Below, piece by piece: positions 20,339 through 52,178 of a DNA stretch of 64,000 nucleotides. Position 1 is the first letter of the stretch. Every line of letters starts with the position of its first letter. The notes beneath the pieces are model-generated. The model was given only the letters and a program-made list of their open reading frames with translations, was not told the origin of the DNA and did no database searches. Position numbers and translations under genes: made by a program. The DNA lies in the NCBI GenBank assembly GCA_045545595.1, contig JAZQBG010000045.1, positions 594 through 64,593 on the forward strand, given 5' to 3'. Origin of the DNA: Bacilli bacterium. GTDB lineage: Bacteria > Bacillota_I > Bacilli_A > RF39 > UBA660.

Positions 20339-20970
20339 TTAATTTTTTCTAATTGTTAATTTCATAGTCTTAAATAATATTTTTATGTCTAATAATAGAT
20401 TGTTATTTTTAACATAACTATAATCTAATTTCAAACGTTCAACAAACAATCTGTTACTTTTTTGATTTACTTGCCAAATACCAGTTATACCAGGTTTACA
20501 AGTTATTATGTGTTTATAATATTTTTTCATATCATTTTTTTCACGTTCTAAATATGGTCTTGGTCCAACCAAGCTCATATTTCCAATTAGTACATTTATA
20601 AATTGTGGAAATTCATCAATGTTAGTTTTTCTAATAAACTTTCCGATTTTTGTAATTCTAGGATCGTCATGTAATTTTTTATATTTGCTATATTTTCTTC
20701 AGACAGTTGTTTATTTTCGTTTAAAATTGTTTCTAATCTTTCATCGGCGTCAACTACCATTGATCTATATTTGTATATCTTGAATATTTTGCCATTTTTC
20801 CCTATTCTCTTTTGAGAGTAAAAAATAGGTCCCTTTTCTCTTAAAATTAATTTAGCAATTATAATAGATATAGTAATTGGTATTAATATTACAGGACCTA
20901 TTAAACCACCTATTATATCGATAATTCTTTTTATAAATTTTTCTAGATTTTTTACTACACATTTTGTCAT
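20339..20970 (-). pseudogene. polyprenyl glycosylphosphotransferase (bacterial sugar transferase, EPS/capsule initiating enzyme) split by frameshift
   Basis: ORF 20596..20970 carries the N-terminal TM segment and KYRSMVVDADERLE. ORF 20339..20578 carries the C-terminal MSLVGPRPYL. The conserved DPRITKIGKFIRKTNIDEFPQFINVLIGN motif is readable only in a third frame. The shift occurs at a T6/A6 homopolymer around 20684. Confidence 0.6.
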
Positions 20971-21138
20971 CTAAAACACCTACTACAATAGTTGAATATT
21001 TTATTTAGTGTTAATATTCTACTATCAAATAAATTTGTAACATCTTAGATAAGTATATCATTCTATGATTAAGCTTGTTAATAAATCTAATATTAATTTA
21101 GCCGTCAAACATTATTATATCGAATATATTTTTGAAAT

Positions 21139-22377
21139 TTAGTCCCTTTGAAAAATATCTCGTGTATAAACTTTATCACGTACGTCATCTAAACATGAAT
21201 TATAGTGATTTGCAAGAATTGTATTACTTCTCTTTTTAAATTCTTCTAAATCATTTATAACTTCGTTACCAAAAAATGTAGTTCCATTTTCTAATGTTGG
21301 TTCATAAATAATTACAGTTGCGCCTTTTTCTTTAATAAATCTCATAACATCTTGTATGCTGCTTTCTCGGAAGTTATCAGAATTATTTTTCATTGTCAAG
21401 CGATATATCCCTATTACACACAAATTTTCCTGTTCACTATAATTATAAAAACCAGATATTTTTAAAATACGCTCTGCAATGAAATCTTTTCTAGTTTTAT
21501 TTGAATCTACTATTGCTTCAATCAGGTTTTCTGGGACATCTTCATAATTTGCCAATAGTTGTTTTGTATCCTTAGGAAGACAATATCCGCCATATCCGAA
21601 ACTTGGATTATTGTAATGGAACCCTATTCGAGAATCTAAACATACCCCTTCAATAATCTTTTGTGTATCCAATCCCTTTATTTCTGCATAAGTATCTAAT
21701 TCATTGAAATAAGAAACACGAAGAGCAAGATATGTATTTGAAAATAACTCAACTGCTTCTGCCTCGGTAAAACCCATAATCAAAGTATCTATATCTTTTT
21801 TGATAGCACTTTCTTTTAAGATTTTTTCGAAAACGTGTGATTTTTCTACTAATCTTTCATCATCCAAATCTGTTCCGACAATTATGCGACTAGGATATAG
21901 ATTGTCATATAGTGCTTTTGTTTCACGTAGGAATTCTGGACTAAAAATTATATTCTTACTTCCAGTCTTCTCCCTGATTGTTTTTGTGTATCCAACTGGA
22001 ACTGTAGATTTAATTACCATAGTTGCATCTGGTGCATATTCCATTACTTGATGAACAACATTTTCCACTGCCAGTGTGTCAAAATAATTTTTATCTTCAT
22101 CATAATTTGTAGGAGTTGCAATTATTACAAAATCCGCATCAGTATATGCATCTTTTGCATTCATAGTAGCTATCAAATTTAATTCTTTTTCTCTAAAATA
22201 CTTTTCAATATAATCATCTTGAATTGGAGACTTTCTATTGTTGATCATATTTACTTTTTCTGGAATAATATCTACTATATATACTTGATTTTTCATAGCT
22301 AAAAGTGTGGCAATACTTAGACCTACATATCCTGCTCCTGCAACTGCTATTTTTAATTTGTTAGTATTATTTTTCAT
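21139..22377 (-). CDS. ugd: UDP-glucose 6-dehydrogenase (nucleotide-sugar dehydrogenase family)
   Basis: N-terminal NAD-binding motif [13 protein letters not shown]. Catalytic Cys motif [21 protein letters not shown] region. Confidence 0.8.
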
Positions 22378-22497
22378 ATTACCACTACTTCCTACAATAA
22401 ATATGTGCTATCATTATCAATTATAAATATCATATTTTATTAACAATAATTCCATCAATATCTATGTTAATATTTTCTAAAGCTTTTTTAGCCATAT

Positions 22498-23664
22498 TTA
22501 TCTCTGTTTCTTTCGTATAATCATTCGACTAACCACAAATACCTTATCTACTAAGCGGGACAAAACAAGTGGATCTGACTCATTATTTATGTGTGAAGTC
22601 ACAACTATTATATAATCGTATGTTTCTTTAAATCTACTAAAACACTCAGTAATTGAACTAGAATTAAATAAATTGTTTTTTTCTGTATCAGTACCTTTAG
22701 AAATAAAACATAAATTATCAATGTTAGTATTAGTCATATACTTTTTATAACCATCTTTATTATCACTTAGTAAATTAGAAAAACCATTTTTATTATTAGT
22801 GTTAAACACTTCATGTAATTTTCCTGTTTTAAAATCACAATCAATAATAAGTATCTTTTTACCTATATCCGAAAAAGCTAAAGCTAATTTGCTAGCAATA
22901 AAATTTTTACCTTCATTCTTTTTTGAACTAGTAATCATTATAATTTTAGAATTATCTAAACTACATTTACTTTCTATATTGGTTCTAAGAATTCTTATGC
23001 TTTCAGTCACATTCATATCATATTCACGTGAAGTTTTTTTATAGTCATTTATATATCCTATTACTGGTATATTAAATTTGTTTTCCAAGTTATTAATAGT
23101 TCGTATTTTTTCATCAATATAGAATATTACAAAAATAATGCCTAATCCTACAATACATCCTATTCCAAAACAAAATATTAAAATTTTACTAACACTAACG
23201 TCAGTAGTTTCAAGAGTGAAAGTTGCTTCTTCTAAAATAATAATGTTTCTATTATTATAATTGTTTTTAACTTCTTCCATTAAATAAGAAGCAATTTTAT
23301 TAGCGATATTTATTGAATTTTTACTGTCTATATCTTTTACCTCTATCTTAACTAAAAAACTAGCTTCTTCTGTAATAACGGTTATGTTATTTGATAATTT
23401 AACAGTATTCATGTTTAAGCCTAAATCGCTTATTACTTTAGTTAAAGTTTTGTTTGACTTGGCTGTTTCTCTGCAGAAAGAAAATATTTCAGCAAGTGAT
23501 GGCGCTACATCTTCAGTTTTGTTGATTCCTTCGTTAACAGGTACAAATAATTTAGCATTTGTTTTGTAATAAATGTTTTGGTTGTTTTTACAATATATAC
23601 CGCCAAAAATAGTACCTAGCACACAACACAAAAGTACAATCCAAATTCTTTTTACAAAAAACAT
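22498..23664 (-). CDS. fused Wzz-like chain-length determinant / BY-kinase-like P-loop ATPase; C-terminus probably frameshifted; no Tyr cluster
   Basis: N-terminal Wzz-type TM plus periplasmic domain. Second TM, then ParA/MinD-like Walker A ITSSKKNEGKN and Walker B ILIIDCD. The conserved C-terminal motif ALENINIDIDGIIVNKI is encoded in a different frame just downstream of the annotated stop (22384-22450). Confidence 0.5.
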   Translation of the reverse strand: MFFVKRIWIVLLCCVLGTIFGGIYCKNNQNIYYKTNAKLFVPVNEGINKTEDVAPSLAEIFSFCRETAKSNKTLTKVISDLGLNMNTVKLSNNITVITEEASFLVKIEVKDIDSKNSINIANKIASYLMEEVKNNYNNRNIIILEEATFTLETTDVSVSKILIFCFGIGCIVGLGIIFVIFYIDEKIRTINNLENKFNIPVIGYINDYKKTSREYDMNVTESIRILRTNIESKCSLDNSKIIMITSSKKNEGKNFIASKLALAFSDIGKKILIIDCDFKTGKLHEVFNTNNKNGFSNLLSDNKDGYKKYMTNTNIDNLCFISKGTDTEKNNLFNSSSITECFSRFKETYDYIIVVTSHINNESDPLVLSRLVDKVFVVSRMIIRKKQR

Positions 23665-24400: not shown

Positions 24401-24761
24401 TGGTGGAGATGAGGGGTAGCGAACCCCTGTCCAAAAATAAATCATTAGTACATCTACAAGCTTAGTCAATTTTTAAATTTCCTAATAGATAAAACAAATT
24501 GACAAACCTATCTATTAGTAAGTCTTTAAATATTCGTTATTCTAGCAAGACAATAGAATAATATAGTTCACTAAATATGAGCCCCTAATATTCCCCGTGA
24601 ACAAAGGAATAAAAGAAGCTTACACCAACCCTAAATTAATTAGGCAAAAGAAGGTGCAAAGTTATAATTATTTTTTCCGTTTATTTTTCGGTTTTGGAAT
24701 TAACGCATACCTGCGACTTGCAGTAGTTAACTCATTATTTCTGTCGAATCAATTCATCCCC
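24401..24761 (-). ncRNA. ssrA: tmRNA (transfer-messenger RNA, SsrA)
   Basis: Minus-strand 5' end GGGGAUGAAUUGAUUCGACAG and 3' end GGACAGGGGUUCGCUACCCCUCAUCUCCACCA. Acceptor stem pairs with G3:U wobble (alanine identity element). T-arm GGUUCGCUACC and encoded CCA. Internal tag frame ends ...KNNYNFAPSFA then TAA. Downstream of smpB as expected. Confidence 0.9.
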
Positions 24762-24843: not shown

Positions 24844-26727
24844 TTATTCCTCAGCAATTCTAGCATAAATCCATTCTACAAATCCATCTCTAACTCCTTG
24901 TGACATTGTTGATGAAATTGTATTTGAACCATACAATGGCCATTTTTTAGACAATGTTATAATAATATCAACTTCATAATTTTCTTTTGTGAATTTGTAA
25001 ACTAGGTTACTAAATGCGCTTTTTGTTCCACTACTGCTACTTAAGACTGTATTTTTAAATGAAGTGAATCGGTTTTTATACGAACGTGTTGATAATCCTG
25101 TGTAATAATTCTCAAAAGCATCTGAAATTGATAGACTACTGTTTTGACTCAAATTATAGTATATTACCCATCCATCAGTATCAGCATACATATCATCCAT
25201 ATTAAAACTAGTATTACTATTACCTAACAAATTCATTGTTGCCTTTTTATATCCTGCAACTGTTTTATCGGTTACTGTTGATAATAAATTATCAACCATG
25301 AATGTTTGAAGATCTCCTGCCCAACTTGCTACTGAGTCAACAGTTATTTGATTAAGTAGATCATAAGGAGAACTAGCTGTTTGATACATTCTGGTATCAA
25401 TTACTGCAGCCATATGTATTAAGTCTATAGTATCATCATTTATTGTAAAACTTTTTTTATTATTAAAATATGTTTTTAAATTTAATGCGTTTGATTGAAC
25501 GTATTCACGAAATGAATAATCAGTTCTTGAAACCTTATCCCAATTTGAACCAGTATATGAAAATGTTCGAATATAATTAAATACTAACCACTTGCTGTAT
25601 GAGGGTTTATAATTTGCAGTTGTATAAGTGGCAGTTGTTGCATAGTTTTTCGCTAATAATTCTAGTCGTGCTATGTTTTTTAATAATGTTGCTACATCTC
25701 TCGGATATTTTAGTTTTTCTGTATATAGTATATTACTTCCATAATTATTTCTTATATTATTATCACCATCATACATTATTATTTCATATTTGTTATCAGC
25801 ATTTATTCTTAACTCTCCACTACCCTTTACATTTGAATTCATAGATATAGAGTTATCATTAATAATATTACCATATTGATCGATTTTGTTTATTGTTCCA
25901 TCATTAAATTCAAAATAAACCTCTGATGTGATATTGTTATTTTTAATATATTTTTTAGCAACAGCTTTTATTTCTTGATATAACACTATAATATTATCAT
26001 CATAACCACTATTTACATCATCTTCTTTTTCATAATTTCCGTTACTATCAATTATTACTACTTCATTGTTTGATAATTCTATTGAGTACTTAAAAGATAA
26101 TGATTCATCTAATATAATGTTTCCGTTTAATGATTTATTTGCGTTAGGATTTATTAATTTATACACTTCTATTTTTGAACCGTCATTTAAATATTCATAT
26201 ATTATTTCACCCTCAAATATAAATCTTTTGCTACCAGTAATTTCATTGTAGGTAGAATACATATCTATAAATAGAGCTAATTCGTTATATAATGACAATA
26301 CATCTCTCGACTCAATTAATGATTTAGTTACTATATTATTTGAATTATAGTCTTTAATTGCATCTATATTTTCACCCTCTAATAATACTGATATCTCTTT
26401 TTGGGGATTAATTTTAATTATACAAAAACTACAAGATTCACCTTTATATTTAAAATAATTTGTTTCTGTTTTTGTACCATCACTATTAATCATGTATTCA
26501 GTATCATTTTCGATTACATAAAATTGTGTTTTCTCTGGTTCCATTTCATTTAACTTAACATCTTCTATAACACTTTTTGCAAGTATTTTTGCGTTGTTAA
26601 CTACAATATCATTTTTTGATTTAGAAATAGCGTTACCAATAAATACATAGCTTATAACACTAATTATAGCTAATATTGTTATTGCAACTAATAACTCTAT
26701 TAGCGTAAACCCTTTTTCTTCTTTCAT
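24844..26727 (-). CDS. large (627 aa) protein with type IV prepilin N-terminal cleavage/methylation domain
   Basis: N-terminus MKEEKGFTLIELLVAITILAIISVISYVF is a class III prepilin signal peptide (G-F-T-L-I-E, then a hydrophobic helix). Remainder is N/Y/S-rich with no other recognisable domain. Confidence 0.6.
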   Translation of the reverse strand: MKEEKGFTLIELLVAITILAIISVISYVFIGNAISKSKNDIVVNNAKILAKSVIEDVKLNEMEPEKTQFYVIENDTEYMINSDGTKTETNYFKYKGESCSFCIIKINPQKEISVLLEGENIDAIKDYNSNNIVTKSLIESRDVLSLYNELALFIDMYSTYNEITGSKRFIFEGEIIYEYLNDGSKIEVYKLINPNANKSLNGNIILDESLSFKYSIELSNNEVVIIDSNGNYEKEDDVNSGYDDNIIVLYQEIKAVAKKYIKNNNITSEVYFEFNDGTINKIDQYGNIINDNSISMNSNVKGSGELRINADNKYEIIMYDGDNNIRNNYGSNILYTEKLKYPRDVATLLKNIARLELLAKNYATTATYTTANYKPSYSKWLVFNYIRTFSYTGSNWDKVSRTDYSFREYVQSNALNLKTYFNNKKSFTINDDTIDLIHMAAVIDTRMYQTASSPYDLLNQITVDSVASWAGDLQTFMVDNLLSTVTDKTVAGYKKATMNLLGNSNTSFNMDDMYADTDGWVIYYNLSQNSSLSISDAFENYYTGLSTRSYKNRFTSFKNTVLSSSSGTKSAFSNLVYKFTKENYEVDIIITLSKKWPLYGSNTISSTMSQGVRDGFVEWIYARIAEE

Positions 26728-27180: not shown

Positions 27181-28341
27181 CTATCCCTCCAAGCTAACAA
27201 TTGGAATTGTATTATCATATTGTCTTATAATATTTGAAAATTTTTCATAATAACTCTTATAATTGTATAATTCGTTATCTGTTAACATTCTATATGGAAT
27301 AACTTTGTAGTTAGACCAATTTCTATAATAAGTATAAATTAATTCAGTATTTAAATTACTAAGTGTAATATTTGATGTTTGATCTTCTTCCACAGTTTTG
27401 TTGATATCTACTGAAACTAGTGCGCCAGTTAATCTTTCAACTCCAATTTGTGCGGAGATAAAATTTCCTAACGAATAGATTACTAATGTATTTCCAACAT
27501 ATTCAATAGGTTGTAATACATGTGGATGAGTTCCAATTATAATATCAACACCTAAATCTGATAGATAACGTGCTACTCTTTTTTGTTCGTCACTTGCACT
27601 ATGCCAATATTCATTTCCCCAATGCATAGATATTAATATAACATCAACTTGGTCTCTTACTCTTTCGATATCTTCTTTAACTTTTTCGTCTGAGTAGGTT
27701 ACTGCATAATAATTTTTACCACCTGGGTGAAGTAGTCCATTAGTACTAGTAGTATAAGCAAGTAATGTATATTTAATATTATTTTTTTCCATTATTCTAG
27801 GAGTAATTCTATCTTCTTCACTCTCATAAGAACCCGCAGTTAATACTCCTTCTTTTTGTTTCCAATAATTTAATGAGTGAAGTACTCCTTTTTCCCCTTT
27901 ATCAAGTGTATGATTACTAGCTAAGTTTACAAGATTAAATCCCATATTAACCATACAATCTCCTATTTCATCTGGAGAATTAAACAATGGATAAGAAGAC
28001 ATTCCTAAATCTTTACCACCTATTATTGTTTCTTGATTATAGAATGCTAAATCATAGTTTTGGACAATTGGTGCGATATAAGTCATTTGTTTAGTAAAGT
28101 CATAATTATTATTACCAAGGTGAGCATCTCCATAAACAGTTGTGTGGATAAGTGCATCACCCGTCATAATTAAACTTAATTTATAATTTTTAGGATATAT
28201 CTCTTTAGGTTCTTCTACCTTTTCCTCTACTTCTTTTTTAGGTTCTTCTTTTTCATTATTGTTTTTAACTATATACACATTAGTAGTAACAATTCCTATT
28301 GCAAAAAATATTAATAAAAGATTTTTAAATATTCTTCTCAT
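27181..28341 (-). CDS. CapA/PGA_cap-family metallophosphoesterase-like protein
   Basis: Signal-anchor. LIMTGDALIHTTVY and NLASNHTLDKG motifs typical of the CapA family. Confidence 0.55.
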   Translation of the reverse strand: MRRIFKNLLLIFFAIGIVTTNVYIVKNNNEKEEPKKEVEEKVEEPKEIYPKNYKLSLIMTGDALIHTTVYGDAHLGNNNYDFTKQMTYIAPIVQNYDLAFYNQETIIGGKDLGMSSYPLFNSPDEIGDCMVNMGFNLVNLASNHTLDKGEKGVLHSLNYWKQKEGVLTAGSYESEEDRITPRIMEKNNIKYTLLAYTTSTNGLLHPGGKNYYAVTYSDEKVKEDIERVRDQVDVILISMHWGNEYWHSASDEQKRVARYLSDLGVDIIIGTHPHVLQPIEYVGNTLVIYSLGNFISAQIGVERLTGALVSVDINKTVEEDQTSNITLSNLNTELIYTYYRNWSNYKVIPYRMLTDNELYNYKSYYEKFSNIIRQYDNTIPIVSLEG

Positions 28342-31059: not shown

Positions 31060-31416
31060 TTATGAACAAGTTGATGAAGATACTAATTCATATGTTACTT
31101 TACTATCTGCAATAGTAACTTTAACTTTATCTGTCAATGCAGTATTATCTCTTGGATCAATAATTGTAGTTCCATCCAAAAACTTATCATCGATATCATT
31201 TATTAGCTTATCAAGAGAAATACATTTTCCTTCATCTTTATGTTTTATATAATATTTACTTGCCGCACCTATTATTTGGTCTTCTAATATTTGATATTGT
31301 TGATTTTTACCCTTTTCGATAAACCTAATACTAGTAGGTACTGCAATAATAGTAATTAGAACCATTATTGTAACTGCAGACAATACTTCTACAAGCGTAA
31401 AACCCTTACTATTCAT
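31060..31416 (-). CDS. type IV pilin-like protein (prepilin-type N-terminal methylation domain)
   Basis: MNSKGFTLVEVLSAVTIMVLITIIAVP class III prepilin signal. 118 aa. Confidence 0.65.
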   Translation of the reverse strand: MNSKGFTLVEVLSAVTIMVLITIIAVPTSIRFIEKGKNQQYQILEDQIIGAASKYYIKHKDEGKCISLDKLINDIDDKFLDGTTIIDPRDNTALTDKVKVTIADSKVTYELVSSSTCS

Positions 31417-35391: not shown

Positions 35392-36003
35392 CTATTTATT
35401 TTTATTTTTTTGTTCAACTTTTTTTAATTTTTTCTTTTTAGTGTTTTTTTGTGATGTCAATTTAACAATTTTAACGATGTCATATGATATAATCGCTAAA
35501 CATGGTATTAAAACTGCAATTAACCATCCGCCTTTTGAAGCTAGGAAGAATTGTAATCTACCTAATTGTGGTATTCTCATTACAACTTTACCAACAATAT
35601 TTTCTTTGATGGTTAATGCATCATCTTCTACGTTATTAGCATCCCCTCTTGTTCTAAAGATACCTTCTTTAGCATCTATTATTTCTACAATTCTATGTGT
35701 TATAGTTGTACCATAAAATCTACTATCATTAGAGTAGAAGGTAATAACATCTCCAACCTTTAGTTCAGTAGGTTCAGTCCTTTTGGAAACTATAACGTCA
35801 TATACATGAATATTAGGTTCCATACTTCCACTTATTATTACATACGCCCCAAATAGTGGTTTTGCCACACCACCTTTAGATTGTTGTATTTTTACATCCA
35901 CAACATATATTGTAAAAACAAGTCCAATTATAATTAATATTACAAGGCATGAATAGGAAATAATTGTAGATATTATTTTACTTATGTCTTTAAATTTTTT
36001 CAT
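35392..36003 (-). CDS. sipW: signal peptidase I, SipW-type (S26B)
   Basis: Catalytic-region motif VISGSMEPNIHVYDVIV is characteristic of SipW/archaeal-type SPase I. N-terminal TM plus C-terminal TM with K-rich tail. Confidence 0.75.
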   Translation of the reverse strand: MKKFKDISKIISTIISYSCLVILIIIGLVFTIYVVDVKIQQSKGGVAKPLFGAYVIISGSMEPNIHVYDVIVSKRTEPTELKVGDVITFYSNDSRFYGTTITHRIVEIIDAKEGIFRTRGDANNVEDDALTIKENIVGKVVMRIPQLGRLQFFLASKGGWLIAVLIPCLAIISYDIVKIVKLTSQKNTKKKKLKKVEQKNKNK

Positions 36004-36018
36004 ACTCTATTTTCCTTT

Positions 36019-36774
36019 CTAATCGTCATCTCTGTCATGGTCACGATCATCGTCATCGCAATCATGTCTATCGTCGTCATCATCACAATCGATATCTTCA
36101 TATACATTTAATACAATTCTGCCTGCATAAAATTTATTTTGATCTTCGTTTCCGACATTTTTATCAATCCAAAGTCTAAGTGCGTATGAATTCACTTTTG
36201 ATGACCTTAACTTTCCACTTAGTATTGTTTCATTTTTTAAATCAGATACAAATCCTTGTTTAACTATTTTATTATTATCTGTATTTATTAGAGAAAATTT
36301 AACTTTTGTATTGCTTATTCTTGTTTTACCAACAATTTCTTCTACATTATGTAATTCACTATCAGGTACATTTACTAATTTTAGAGTATAGTTAAGTGAA
36401 TATGTACCATTGTTATTTAACTTAAATTTAAAAGGTTTTAAAGTCATCGCCTTTTCATCACTCATTGGAGCGGTATTATATAATCTTATAGTTGTATCTG
36501 TTTGTTCAACTAATTCCAATGACATCTCACCCACTTCAACTTTATGATGGGGGATTTTGTTTTGGTTATATACAGTTGATATAGTAAAAGCGCTAGAAAT
36601 TATCAACATTAATAGTGTTATTGAGTATAATAGCAATAACAATAGCGATTTTTTTGTTTTTTCTTTTTCAACAAAATATTCACTATCAACTCCACATTCT
36701 GGACATTTATAATCTTCTGGTAATTTTCTAAATTCTACTTCGAATTTACAATTTTGACACTGAAAGATCTTCAT
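36019..36774 (-). CDS. membrane protein with N-terminal zinc-ribbon and C-terminal poly-Asp/Cys/His tail
   Basis: CQNCKF...CPECG zinc-ribbon, one TM helix, about 170-aa extracytoplasmic domain. C-terminus DIDCDDDDDRHDCDDDDRDHDRDDD. Confidence 0.5.
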   Translation of the reverse strand: MKIFQCQNCKFEVEFRKLPEDYKCPECGVDSEYFVEKEKTKKSLLLLLLYSITLLMLIISSAFTISTVYNQNKIPHHKVEVGEMSLELVEQTDTTIRLYNTAPMSDEKAMTLKPFKFKLNNNGTYSLNYTLKLVNVPDSELHNVEEIVGKTRISNTKVKFSLINTDNNKIVKQGFVSDLKNETILSGKLRSSKVNSYALRLWIDKNVGNEDQNKFYAGRIVLNVYEDIDCDDDDDRHDCDDDDRDHDRDDD

Positions 36775-36872
36775 GGCAACTCCTCCTATGATAAAATAAT
36801 TATATAATAAAAACTTGCATTATTCAATGCAAGTTTATTATTTTTTTTCGTTTTCAAACTTCAGTGTAAATA

Positions 36873-37463
36873 CTATTGGATAGCATCAACAGTAAGTTTA
36901 GCAGTAATATTTAAACCTTGTAATTGATCTTGTTTAGCACTTGTAGTATCTTCAATCCAAATATATAATGTATAAGTGTCAGTATTTGTACCAACAGGGA
37001 TTGAAATTTTATCAACGTTTATAACCTCATTAGTTAAGTTACCTGATGTAAAATCACCAGTGTTAACTTCACCTTCAGCATCATATAAAGCCCATTTTAC
37101 ATCTGCTAAGCTTCCACCTTCTTTAGTTGTGTCTAAATCGTCTGCAGTTAATCCAGTAGTAGTTAATTTGATATCATATTTACCAGTAGTTATAGTTGTT
37201 CCATCAGTAACAACAGTTAATCCTACTTTTGCGATATCTGCATCTTCATCAGCAGTTTCAGCATCTACCCATGTTGTTGGTTTAATACTAACATTATCAG
37301 CTACTGTTGATGTAGCAGAAACTTTTAATTCACCAGTTTTAACATTTTGTGTTACTGTTCCACCTGTCGCACTGAAATATGCGAATGTAGCACCTACTGT
37401 AGCAACGATTAATACAGCGATAGCAATAACAGTTAATAATACTTTATTTGCATTCCTTTCCAT
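36873..37463 (-). CDS. TasA/CalY (camelysin)-like secreted protein with SipW-cognate signal peptide
   Basis: LLTVIAIAVLIVATVGATFAYFSATGGTVTQNVKTGELKV matches the SipW-cognate signal class (GxTFAYFSD-like) and TasA/CalY N-terminal region. 196 aa, like CalY. Confidence 0.6.
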   Translation of the reverse strand: MERNANKVLLTVIAIAVLIVATVGATFAYFSATGGTVTQNVKTGELKVSATSTVADNVSIKPTTWVDAETADEDADIAKVGLTVVTDGTTITTGKYDIKLTTTGLTADDLDTTKEGGSLADVKWALYDAEGEVNTGDFTSGNLTNEVINVDKISIPVGTNTDTYTLYIWIEDTTSAKQDQLQGLNITAKLTVDAIQ

Positions 37464-37567
37464 TTTCCTTACCTCCTCTACTATTAGATAATATCATATT
37501 TTTTTTTAGAATACAACAATAAAAACAAAAAAATAACAAAATAAAATTTTTGTTACGTAAAACAAAA

Positions 37568-37600
37568 AAATATCGAAGCATAAACTTCGATATTTTATAG
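37568..37600 (-). terminator. rho-independent terminator after tuf
   Basis: atatcgaag/cttcgatat 9-bp stem plus T-run on minus strand. Confidence 0.65.
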
Positions 37601-52011: not shown

Positions 52012-52178
52012 ACTACACCTCCTCTATTTATAAAATACCGTATTAAAAAACCTTTATATGCGTAGACATACAAAGGTTTTAAAGACTTTATCTTTAAGTT
52101 CCTCGGTAGGATTATTAAGCATTAGCCCCTACTGTCTACGGTACTTCGTTCACGTTGTTTATTATAATATATTTTTTA
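52012..52178 (-). promoter_or_regulatory. putative L10 (rplJ) leader autoregulatory RNA region
   Basis: About 165-nt structured, comparatively GC-richer untranslated spacer between rplA and rplJ, as in Firmicutes L10 leaders. Assigned by position only. Confidence 0.4.

Follow-up and report, generated by a model that had tools for sequence, protein, structure and literature searches.

We analysed a 64,000-nucleotide (nt) stretch of contig JAZQBG010000045.1 from a Bacilli bacterium (hereafter the window; G+C ~28%) and describe here a small gene cluster built around a signal peptidase of the SipW type. Three minus-strand open reading frames (ORFs) within positions 35392-37463 encode, in this order, a 196-amino-acid (aa) TasA/camelysin-like protein that we presume to be the subunit of a fibre, a 251-aa membrane protein, and SipW (Table 1). 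The start of sipW lies 15 nt past the stop codon of the 251-aa gene. A first-pass annotation, made from the letters alone, had reported this arrangement, and its coordinates, gene order, and quoted strings are all borne out.

The 203-aa product of the last gene scored 102.6 bits against TIGR02228 (sigpep_I_arch; cutoff 51.85) and did not reach the Bacillus SipW equivalog NF046067 (102.2 vs 190). Thus, it is a member of the family, not a Bacillus-type equivalog. The profile match strongly supports its assignment as an archaeal/endoplasmic reticulum (ER)-type signal peptidase I, as the first-pass annotation had proposed. The Ser box SGSMEP (S58-P63), THR (T102-R104), and GDANN (G120-N124) were invariant in six orthologues. 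By analogy with SipW and Sec11, we take the Ser of SGSMEP, the His of THR (which replaces the Lys of P-type enzymes), and the Asp of GDxN to be the catalytic boxes.

The conservation of its N-terminus strongly supports a canonical SipW-type signal in the 196-aa protein. A search of 5.8 billion clusters yielded 49 detectable homologues, and in the 28 that were aligned, G24, A25, F27, A28, F30, S31, and A32 were invariant (residues 24-35 of the window protein read GATFAYFSATGG). The motif GATFA/YF, where the slash marks the predicted cleavage site, is the only canonical SipW-type motif among the window ORFs and aligned with GGTWA/AF of TasA when the wide family profile described below was compared with hhalign. 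By reference to TasA, cleavage would occur after A28. Fourteen of the 28 aligned homologues matched PF12389 (Peptidase_M73) at E<=0.001, and P0060, which is 39% identical to the 196-aa protein, matched at 28.9 bits across positions 3-191 of 196, the full length of the model. Since these homologues match PF12389 though the window protein does not, its link to the TasA/camelysin family is transitive but real, and its earlier designation as a SipW-type substrate of this lineage stands. The name 'metallo-endopeptidase' attached to PF12389 is historical; library scans revealed no protease family or catalytic motif, and no search aimed at camelysin-type activity was made.

AlphaFold2 (AF2) predicted a signal helix followed by a beta-sandwich for the 196-aa protein, with a predicted local distance difference test (pLDDT) score of 83. 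Residues 21-40 of this monomer model reached only 54-56, despite the many invariant or near-invariant columns in residues 29-50. By analogy with TasA and BsaA, residues 29-50 are a candidate donor strand (PMC10151520, PMC11580942). A beta-sandwich was also predicted for the 251-aa protein. Neither the 196-aa nor the 251-aa family profile matched a PDB entry by sequence.

The 251-aa protein begins with two CxxC pairs (C6/C9 and C24/C27), followed by a single transmembrane (TM) segment and an extracellular domain. All four cysteines were kept in 15 of 15 ribbon-bearing relatives, down to 51% identity. Pfam matches to this region were below threshold (RUBY_RBDX, 21.8 bits vs 26.5; Rubredoxin, 21.5 vs 23), and TIGR04104 (cxxc_20_cxxc) covered residues 5-63 at 21.3 bits against a cutoff of 45, which excludes membership. 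AF2 modelled the ribbon as three short strands (pLDDT 82-85). The ribbon is predicted to bind metal. The zinc-ribbon form is rare: the full architecture occurred in only 19 proteins, all from one syntenic lineage of uncultured low-GC Bacillota, and 'Bacillota bacterium SIG205' was the only GTDB species representative that encoded it.

At the other end of the protein is the tail DIDCDDDDDRHDCDDDDRDHDRDDD (residues 227-251). The first-pass annotation had called this Asp/Cys/His-rich segment unusual; among the relatives, it is not a conserved feature. An acidic tail with a Cys pair, of variable length, was present in 9 of the 15 ribbon-bearing relatives (10/16 with the window protein included) and absent from the other six clade members, SIG205 among them; in the AF2 model its pLDDT was below 50. 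With 6 of 16 clade members lacking it, the tail cannot be essential and should be dispensable for the core role. At the DNA level, it shows no more than a weak codon repeat resembling (GACGAT)n. The tail may bind divalent cations. We regard both the zinc ribbon and this tail as additions specific to the lineage, and none of the ribbon, tail, signal motif, and peptidase features as a chance occurrence.

The TM segment and ectodomain belong to a much larger family. An exhaustive profile search recovered at least 3258 representative clusters (50% identity) at E<=1e-3, and 1175 at E<=1e-10. The domain is N-terminal in this wide family and has no Pfam model. In most of the 148 best representatives, a regular expression detected a motif of the type G-[TS]-[ST]-Y-A-[LVWF]-[FL] after the hydrophobic segment, and none of the 148 carried an N-terminal CxxC pair. 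The family comprises small proteins of ~180-220 aa as well as surface proteins of 300-2100 aa in which the domain forms the head, the latter carrying Bact_surface_Ig-like, LRR_5 (BspA), DUF6273, or Listeria-Bacteroides repeat domains (within P0069-P0216, for example P0076, P0087, P0100, and P0165). Such large proteins might serve as tip adhesins, with the head domain linking them to TasA-type fibres.

In an hhalign comparison, the 251-aa and 196-aa family alignments matched across 179 columns with a probability of 95.8% (E 7e-9), the match running from the signal through to the final strand. In agreement, a hidden Markov model of the middle-protein family matched the 196-aa protein at E 1e-10 and had no other match in the window. 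Together with the models, these alignments strongly support the ectodomain of the 251-aa protein as a diverged paralog of the adjacent 196-aa protein with the same predicted beta-sandwich. The first-pass annotation had described the middle protein as unrelated to TapA. Homology to TapA was rejected here as well; however, its architecture is not an unrelated one, since the ectodomain is a paralog of the neighbouring TasA-like gene product and part of a very large family.

The link to TasA itself was visible with the broadest profile. For comparison with B. subtilis TasA, residues 28-261 were checked to be identical to 8aur_A (mature TasA starts at A28), and a 147-sequence profile of the wide domain family aligned with TasA at 84% probability (E 7e-6) across the signal and first strands. 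By eye, NLKPGD, FQFENNGS, and QNKYQGNSIKLQF of TasA correspond to NTAPMSD, FKLNNNGT, and QNKFYAGRIVLNV of the family. The 251-aa ectodomain thus resembles the TasA superfamily in both fold and profile, and we regard the homology statements made here for the module as solid.

The cleavage region of the 251-aa protein departs from that of its family. At the P1 column, which is aligned to the TasA cleavage site, 130 of the 146 sequences in the wide alignment had Ala, the others being Gly (10), Ser (5), and Thr (1); at P2′, 119 of the 146 had Phe or Leu and 3 had Ser. The corresponding motif of the 251-aa protein, SSAFT/IS, has Thr at P1 and Ser at P2′ and is not a canonical SipW-cognate motif. 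Both residues (T64 and S66) were near-invariant within the middle-protein clade, and the -3 position was Tyr in the clade members P0011 and P0014. These substitutions suggest that SipW processing of the 251-aa protein is altered and probably lost, in which case it would remain in the membrane in type II orientation, its ribbon in the cytoplasm.

We also asked how tightly family members are linked to sipW. The zinc-ribbon clade had the same synteny at every readable locus (L001-L004, L006, and L041). The link was also found in zinc-less relatives. P0069 (locus L040) keeps the motif SGAFTIST and lies directly upstream of a sipW-like ORF, while at L013:6209-7601 and L023:9061-10420, both from metagenome-assembled genomes (MAGs) of uncultured Bacilli, the gene of a more distantly related paralog runs into the start of sipW, whose identity to the window sipW is 65%. 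Both the P0069 and the L013/L023 groups have non-canonical cleavage motifs. The L013/L023 paralogs consist of a short acidic cytoplasmic N-terminus, a TM segment, an Asp/Gly/Asn/Thr-rich linker, and the domain, with no acidic tail at the C-terminus. Thus, acidic low-complexity segments recur in this subgroup, but at different positions. A metagenome scan seeded with SipW returned only sipW relatives (25-48% identity), and the two nearest, L042 and L043, each had an adjacent member of the ectodomain family. In contrast, no sipW was present within 10 kb at ~28 of 34 wide-family genome loci. Since sipW adjoins the anchored-type groups and is absent at most wide-family loci, the tight link is a trait of the anchored-type subgroup and not of the whole family. 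The co-occurrence with sipW raised by the first-pass annotation therefore holds at all readable loci of the zinc-ribbon clade, although it is neither confined to that clade nor general in the family. The related proposal of a dedicated accessory role can be kept in a modified version: although ectodomain members are widespread, the family lacks annotation and recurs next to signal peptidase I genes.

A model that accommodates these data, to which we assign a probability of roughly 0.5, is that the three genes form a compact TasA-superfamily fibre module, inserted downstream of tuf, in which subunits are joined by donor strands and the minor paralog stays in the membrane as an anchor, nucleator, or terminator, a role like that of TapA without homology to it. 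SipW would remove the signal of the 196-aa protein after GATFA. The freed N-terminal segment would then serve as a donor strand, allowing the subunit to polymerise outside the cell, as do TasA and BsaA, both of which polymerise by N-terminal donor-strand exchange (PMC10151520, PMC11580942). Because the altered motif of the 251-aa paralog carries Thr at P1 and Ser at P2′ and follows a folded zinc ribbon on the cytoplasmic side, this protein would not be released and would remain a type II protein with its TasA-like domain outside. By exchanging strands with the major subunit, it could keep the fibre attached to the cell, acting either as the first subunit, a TapA-like nucleator, or as an uncleavable last subunit, an anchor and terminator comparable to a basal pilin or PapH. 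The hairpin between the subunit and anchor genes might set the stoichiometry and keep the anchor and the peptidase below the subunit in abundance.

Several published observations fit such a model. TapA, which is of low abundance and co-expressed with SipW, donates its N-terminus and so starts TasA filaments (PMC10151520). BsaA oligomers are membrane-anchored, and SipW has been proposed to cleave new subunits after they have joined (PMC11580942). Paralogous minor subunits and membrane anchors are often encoded in TasA-superfamily loci (bioRxiv 10.64898/2026.01.04.697558). Within our own data, the anchor reading is supported by the P1 and P2′ substitutions, by the hairpin between the two TasA-like genes, and by the presence of an anchored-type paralog beside sipW in three sublineages, the zinc-ribbon clade, P0069 (L040), and L013/L023. 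Our literature search found no description of an uncleavable 'signal-anchor' class of subunit for SipW systems and nothing relevant on TasA together with a zinc ribbon. We think it unlikely that the zinc ribbon goes further and couples the extracellular fibre to a cytoplasmic partner, or gates assembly or termination from inside.

A number of results weigh against the fibre-anchor model. When the narrow profiles were compared with the single TasA sequence, they gave probabilities of 3-4%, which are not significant, and the 196-aa protein falls below the PF12389 gathering threshold (14 bits vs 22.5). The AF2 models are of single chains and were built from shallow alignments (17 and 28 sequences). 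ER-type peptidases can accept Thr at P1, so this residue does not exclude cleavage. In addition, P0100 and P0135 combine canonical motifs with cytoplasmic N-regions of 70-140 aa; thus, an anchor cannot be deduced from a long N-region alone. Finally, we infer polymerisation, cleavage, and anchoring in this module by analogy with characterised systems.

Some of these points would be accounted for if the 251-aa protein were a SipW-cleaved, secreted minor subunit like BsaB or CalY, with the zinc ribbon and TM segment as an elaborate signal peptide. The ribbon might then delay export, fix topology, or remain as a small membrane peptide; in one variant, the freed zinc-ribbon-TM leader may itself be a functional peptide of the membrane. 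Around the motif, the spacing of cleavable relatives is retained (17 residues separate F63 and T64 from G82, compared with ~20 in the 196-aa protein), canonical members such as P0100 and P0135 can have long N-regions, and BsaB is a non-polymerising paralog encoded beside the major subunit BsaA (PMC11580942). We nevertheless consider this unlikely, since in the clade Thr and Ser replace the Ala at P1 and the Phe or Leu at P2′ that prevail in the family, two members have Tyr at -3, and a leader destined to be discarded would less readily account for purifying selection on a four-Cys fold. It is quite unlikely that the 251-aa protein acts at the surface on its own, using the TasA-like fold for a purpose other than fibres, such as divalent-metal capture or adhesion through its acidic Cys/His tail, with a position beside sipW that is historical. 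The tail is strikingly rich in Asp, Cys, and His, its Cys pair occurs in most of the clade, most wide-family loci lack a nearby sipW, and the domain heads large adhesin-like proteins in many family members. However, clade members that lack the tail keep the adjacency to sipW at all loci read, the adjacency extends to zinc-less sublineages, and both of the nearest metagenome relatives of sipW also adjoin a family member.

The remaining explanations fit the locus less well. Zinc-binding anti-sigma factors consist of an N-terminal zinc-binding module, one TM segment, and an ectodomain, and the 251-aa protein recalls this arrangement, with its sub-threshold TIGR04104 and rubredoxin-like matches; its ectodomain could sense fibre subunits and its ribbon signal to a cytoplasmic partner. 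We regard a sensor or regulator of this anti-sigma-like kind as very unlikely, as the ribbon spans only ~35 aa and matches no anti-sigma domain, the module contains no sigma factor or regulator (the nearest sigma-like gene, in the sigH position, is 17 kb away), and zinc-less relatives hold the same place beside sipW. That the module genes encode spore-surface components, an idea that follows the original TasA/CotN proposal and that the first-pass annotation drew from supposedly sporulation-type neighbours, is extremely improbable. TasA was first described as spore-associated, and PDB 5of1 is named 'Spore coat-associated protein N'. The window also encodes, at 16219-16878(+), a 219-aa protein with collagen triple-helix repeats (PF01391, E 3e-16) that adjoins an HTH_3 regulator and Amidase_3; these three genes may be what was taken for sporulation-type. 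However, the scan of ~40 window ORFs revealed no sporulation-specific family, and the neighbourhood is one of housekeeping genes (the str operon, murD, eno, secG, rnr, and smpB).

The module follows rpsL-rpsG-fusA-tuf and is itself followed by a convergent femAB-family gene, beyond which lie murD, eno, a small prepilin-type gene, secG, and rnr. Terminator-like sites were more frequent than expected (4 observed vs 0.5), while counts of promoter-like sites were not above those in shuffled sequences. One promoter-like site (36827-36799; 10 of 12 positions matched) overlaps the hairpin between the 196-aa and 251-aa genes. An Rfam scan of the window found no riboswitch or leader RNA upstream of the module, and the only matches at the gathering score were tmRNA at 24401-24761(-), adjoining smpB, and an L10 leader at 52036-52159(-). 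Opposite the TasA-like gene, and overlapping it in full, lies a 171-aa antisense ORF at 36976-37491(+), which nothing supports as a gene and which is most probably a by-product of composition.

Table 1. Positions of the genes, protein segments, and hairpins of the sipW module in the window
Feature	Position	Strand	Basis
TasA/camelysin-like gene, 196 aa, presumed major fibre subunit	36873..37463	-	ORF, homologues, profile matches
SipW-type signal peptide, residues 1-28, predicted cleavage GATFA/YF	37380..37463	-	direct reading
Conserved N-terminal mature segment, residues 29-50, candidate donor strand	37314..37379	-	conserved columns
Membrane-anchored TasA-like paralog gene, 251 aa (anchoring predicted)	36019..36774	-	ORF and profile evidence
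Cytoplasmic 4-Cys rubredoxin-like zinc ribbon (predicted), residues 1-37	36664..36774	-	Cys conservation, AF2
Hydrophobic segment, residues ~43-69, degenerate SipW motif SSAFT/IS	36568..36648	-	AF2 helix 44-72
Extracellular TasA-superfamily beta-sandwich (predicted), residues 79-226; motifs PMSD, NNNGT, RLWIDKNVGNEDQNKFY	36097..36540	-	
Asp/Cys/His-rich C-terminal tail, residues 227-251	36022..36096	-	direct reading
sipW, archaeal/ER-type signal peptidase I, 203 aa, C-terminal TM, Lys-rich tail	35392..36003	-	TIGR02228
Terminator-like hairpin 3′ of tuf	37567..37596	-	13-pair stem, then T-run; parts module from str operon
Hairpin and T-run between 196-aa and 251-aa genes, possible attenuator	36811..36836	-	hairpin scan

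Other genes with surface functions lie nearby. Two prepilin-type (N_methyl) genes are found a few kb downstream of the module, one encoding 118 aa at 31060-31416(-) and the other an unusually long product of 627 aa at 24844-26727(-). At L023:3344-5892, PilC-like and prepilin-peptidase-like ORFs, identified by eye from their translations, adjoin family members. These prepilin-type genes recall the type IV pilus-dependent secretion reported for the C. perfringens sipW-bsa operon. Within 15 kb there is also a PGA_cap (poly-gamma-glutamate capsule synthesis-type) protein at 27181-28341(-) and a small exopolysaccharide set at 20596-23664(-), comprising a UDP-glucose dehydrogenase-family protein, a sugar transferase fragment, and a CbiA/MinD-like ATPase. 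Thus, several surface or matrix functions cluster in this region. An Abi_2 (abortive-infection-like) protein is encoded at 13354-14301(-), between htrA-like and phospholipase C-like genes.

Among characterised systems, the module shares with tapA-sipW-tasA of B. subtilis a dedicated archaeal/ER-type signal peptidase encoded with its substrates, a major subunit with a G-x-[FW]-A/x-F signal, and an accessory protein encoded immediately upstream of sipW. Unlike the B. subtilis operon, its order is subunit, accessory, sipW, and its subunit is shorter (196 vs 261 aa) and linked to TasA only through profiles. TapA has a V-set Ig fold, whereas the accessory protein described here is a paralog of the subunit itself, with an altered cleavage motif, a cytoplasmic zinc ribbon, and in some members an acidic Cys tail. 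The C. perfringens sipW-bsaA-bsaB-bsaC operon also combines sipW with two TasA-like paralogs, of which one forms the major polymer and the other is minor and non-polymerising in that organism. BsaA oligomers are reported to have their anchor in the membrane rather than in peptidoglycan (PMC11580942), and a type IV pilus link has been reported there, as type IV pilin genes lie near the module here and in L023. However, the window module has no VWA protein (BsaC) and no adjacent sortase, and anchoring in C. perfringens is proposed to occur through uncleaved precursors, in place of the dedicated zinc-ribbon paralog that we propose.

The AbpX/Tafi loci (bioRxiv 10.64898/2026.01.04.697558), which we compared by their description, likewise encode major and paralogous minor subunits, an anchor joined by a donor strand, and a dedicated signal peptidase I, and chemistry that is acidic and responds to calcium recurs in that family. 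A kit of this sort also contains a relative of the 251-aa ectodomain family. The locus L018:941-12019, from a rabbit gut MAG of an uncultured Bacilli member, encodes a 388-aa polytopic S26 peptidase, a DUF5305 protein, a 200-aa protein, a HerA/DUF87 ATPase, and seven tandem family paralogs (211-218 aa) that have the canonical signal G[SV]TYAWL, and its peptidase-plus-DUF5305 part resembles the kit described for AbpX/Tafi. In contrast, the window peptidase is of the short, two-TM SipW type, no DUF5305 protein is encoded with it, and the anchor would be an N-terminal TM segment with a cytoplasmic zinc ribbon, where AbpX/Tafi anchors are C-terminal (SLH or LPXTG). Two CxxC knuckles followed by a single TM segment are also found in Bacillota zinc-ribbon-TM-ectodomain proteins (TIGR04104, zinc_ribbon_2-type), from which the 251-aa protein differs in lying outside TIGR04104 and in belonging to an ectodomain family whose best representatives lack the ribbon.

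The module thus appears to be a sipW-linked TasA-superfamily fibre locus, of a kind already known. What appears to be new is a subunit paralog probably turned into a zinc-ribbon signal-anchor protein in the position that TapA occupies in Bacillus. Even for B. subtilis and C. perfringens, there is still debate over how TasA-type matrix fibres start, stop, and attach to the cell. A paralog that has lost its cleavage motif, gained a cytoplasmic domain, and is always found beside sipW would, if our reading is correct, provide a clean, testable model for anchoring or termination. A broader by-product is the large, unannotated family of TasA-like head domains, whose loci, among those examined, came mostly from gut MAGs of uncultured Bacilli. 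The occurrence of this domain both as small subunits and as the heads of very large adhesin-like proteins suggests that a fibre-and-tip-adhesin system is widespread in these little-studied gut bacteria.

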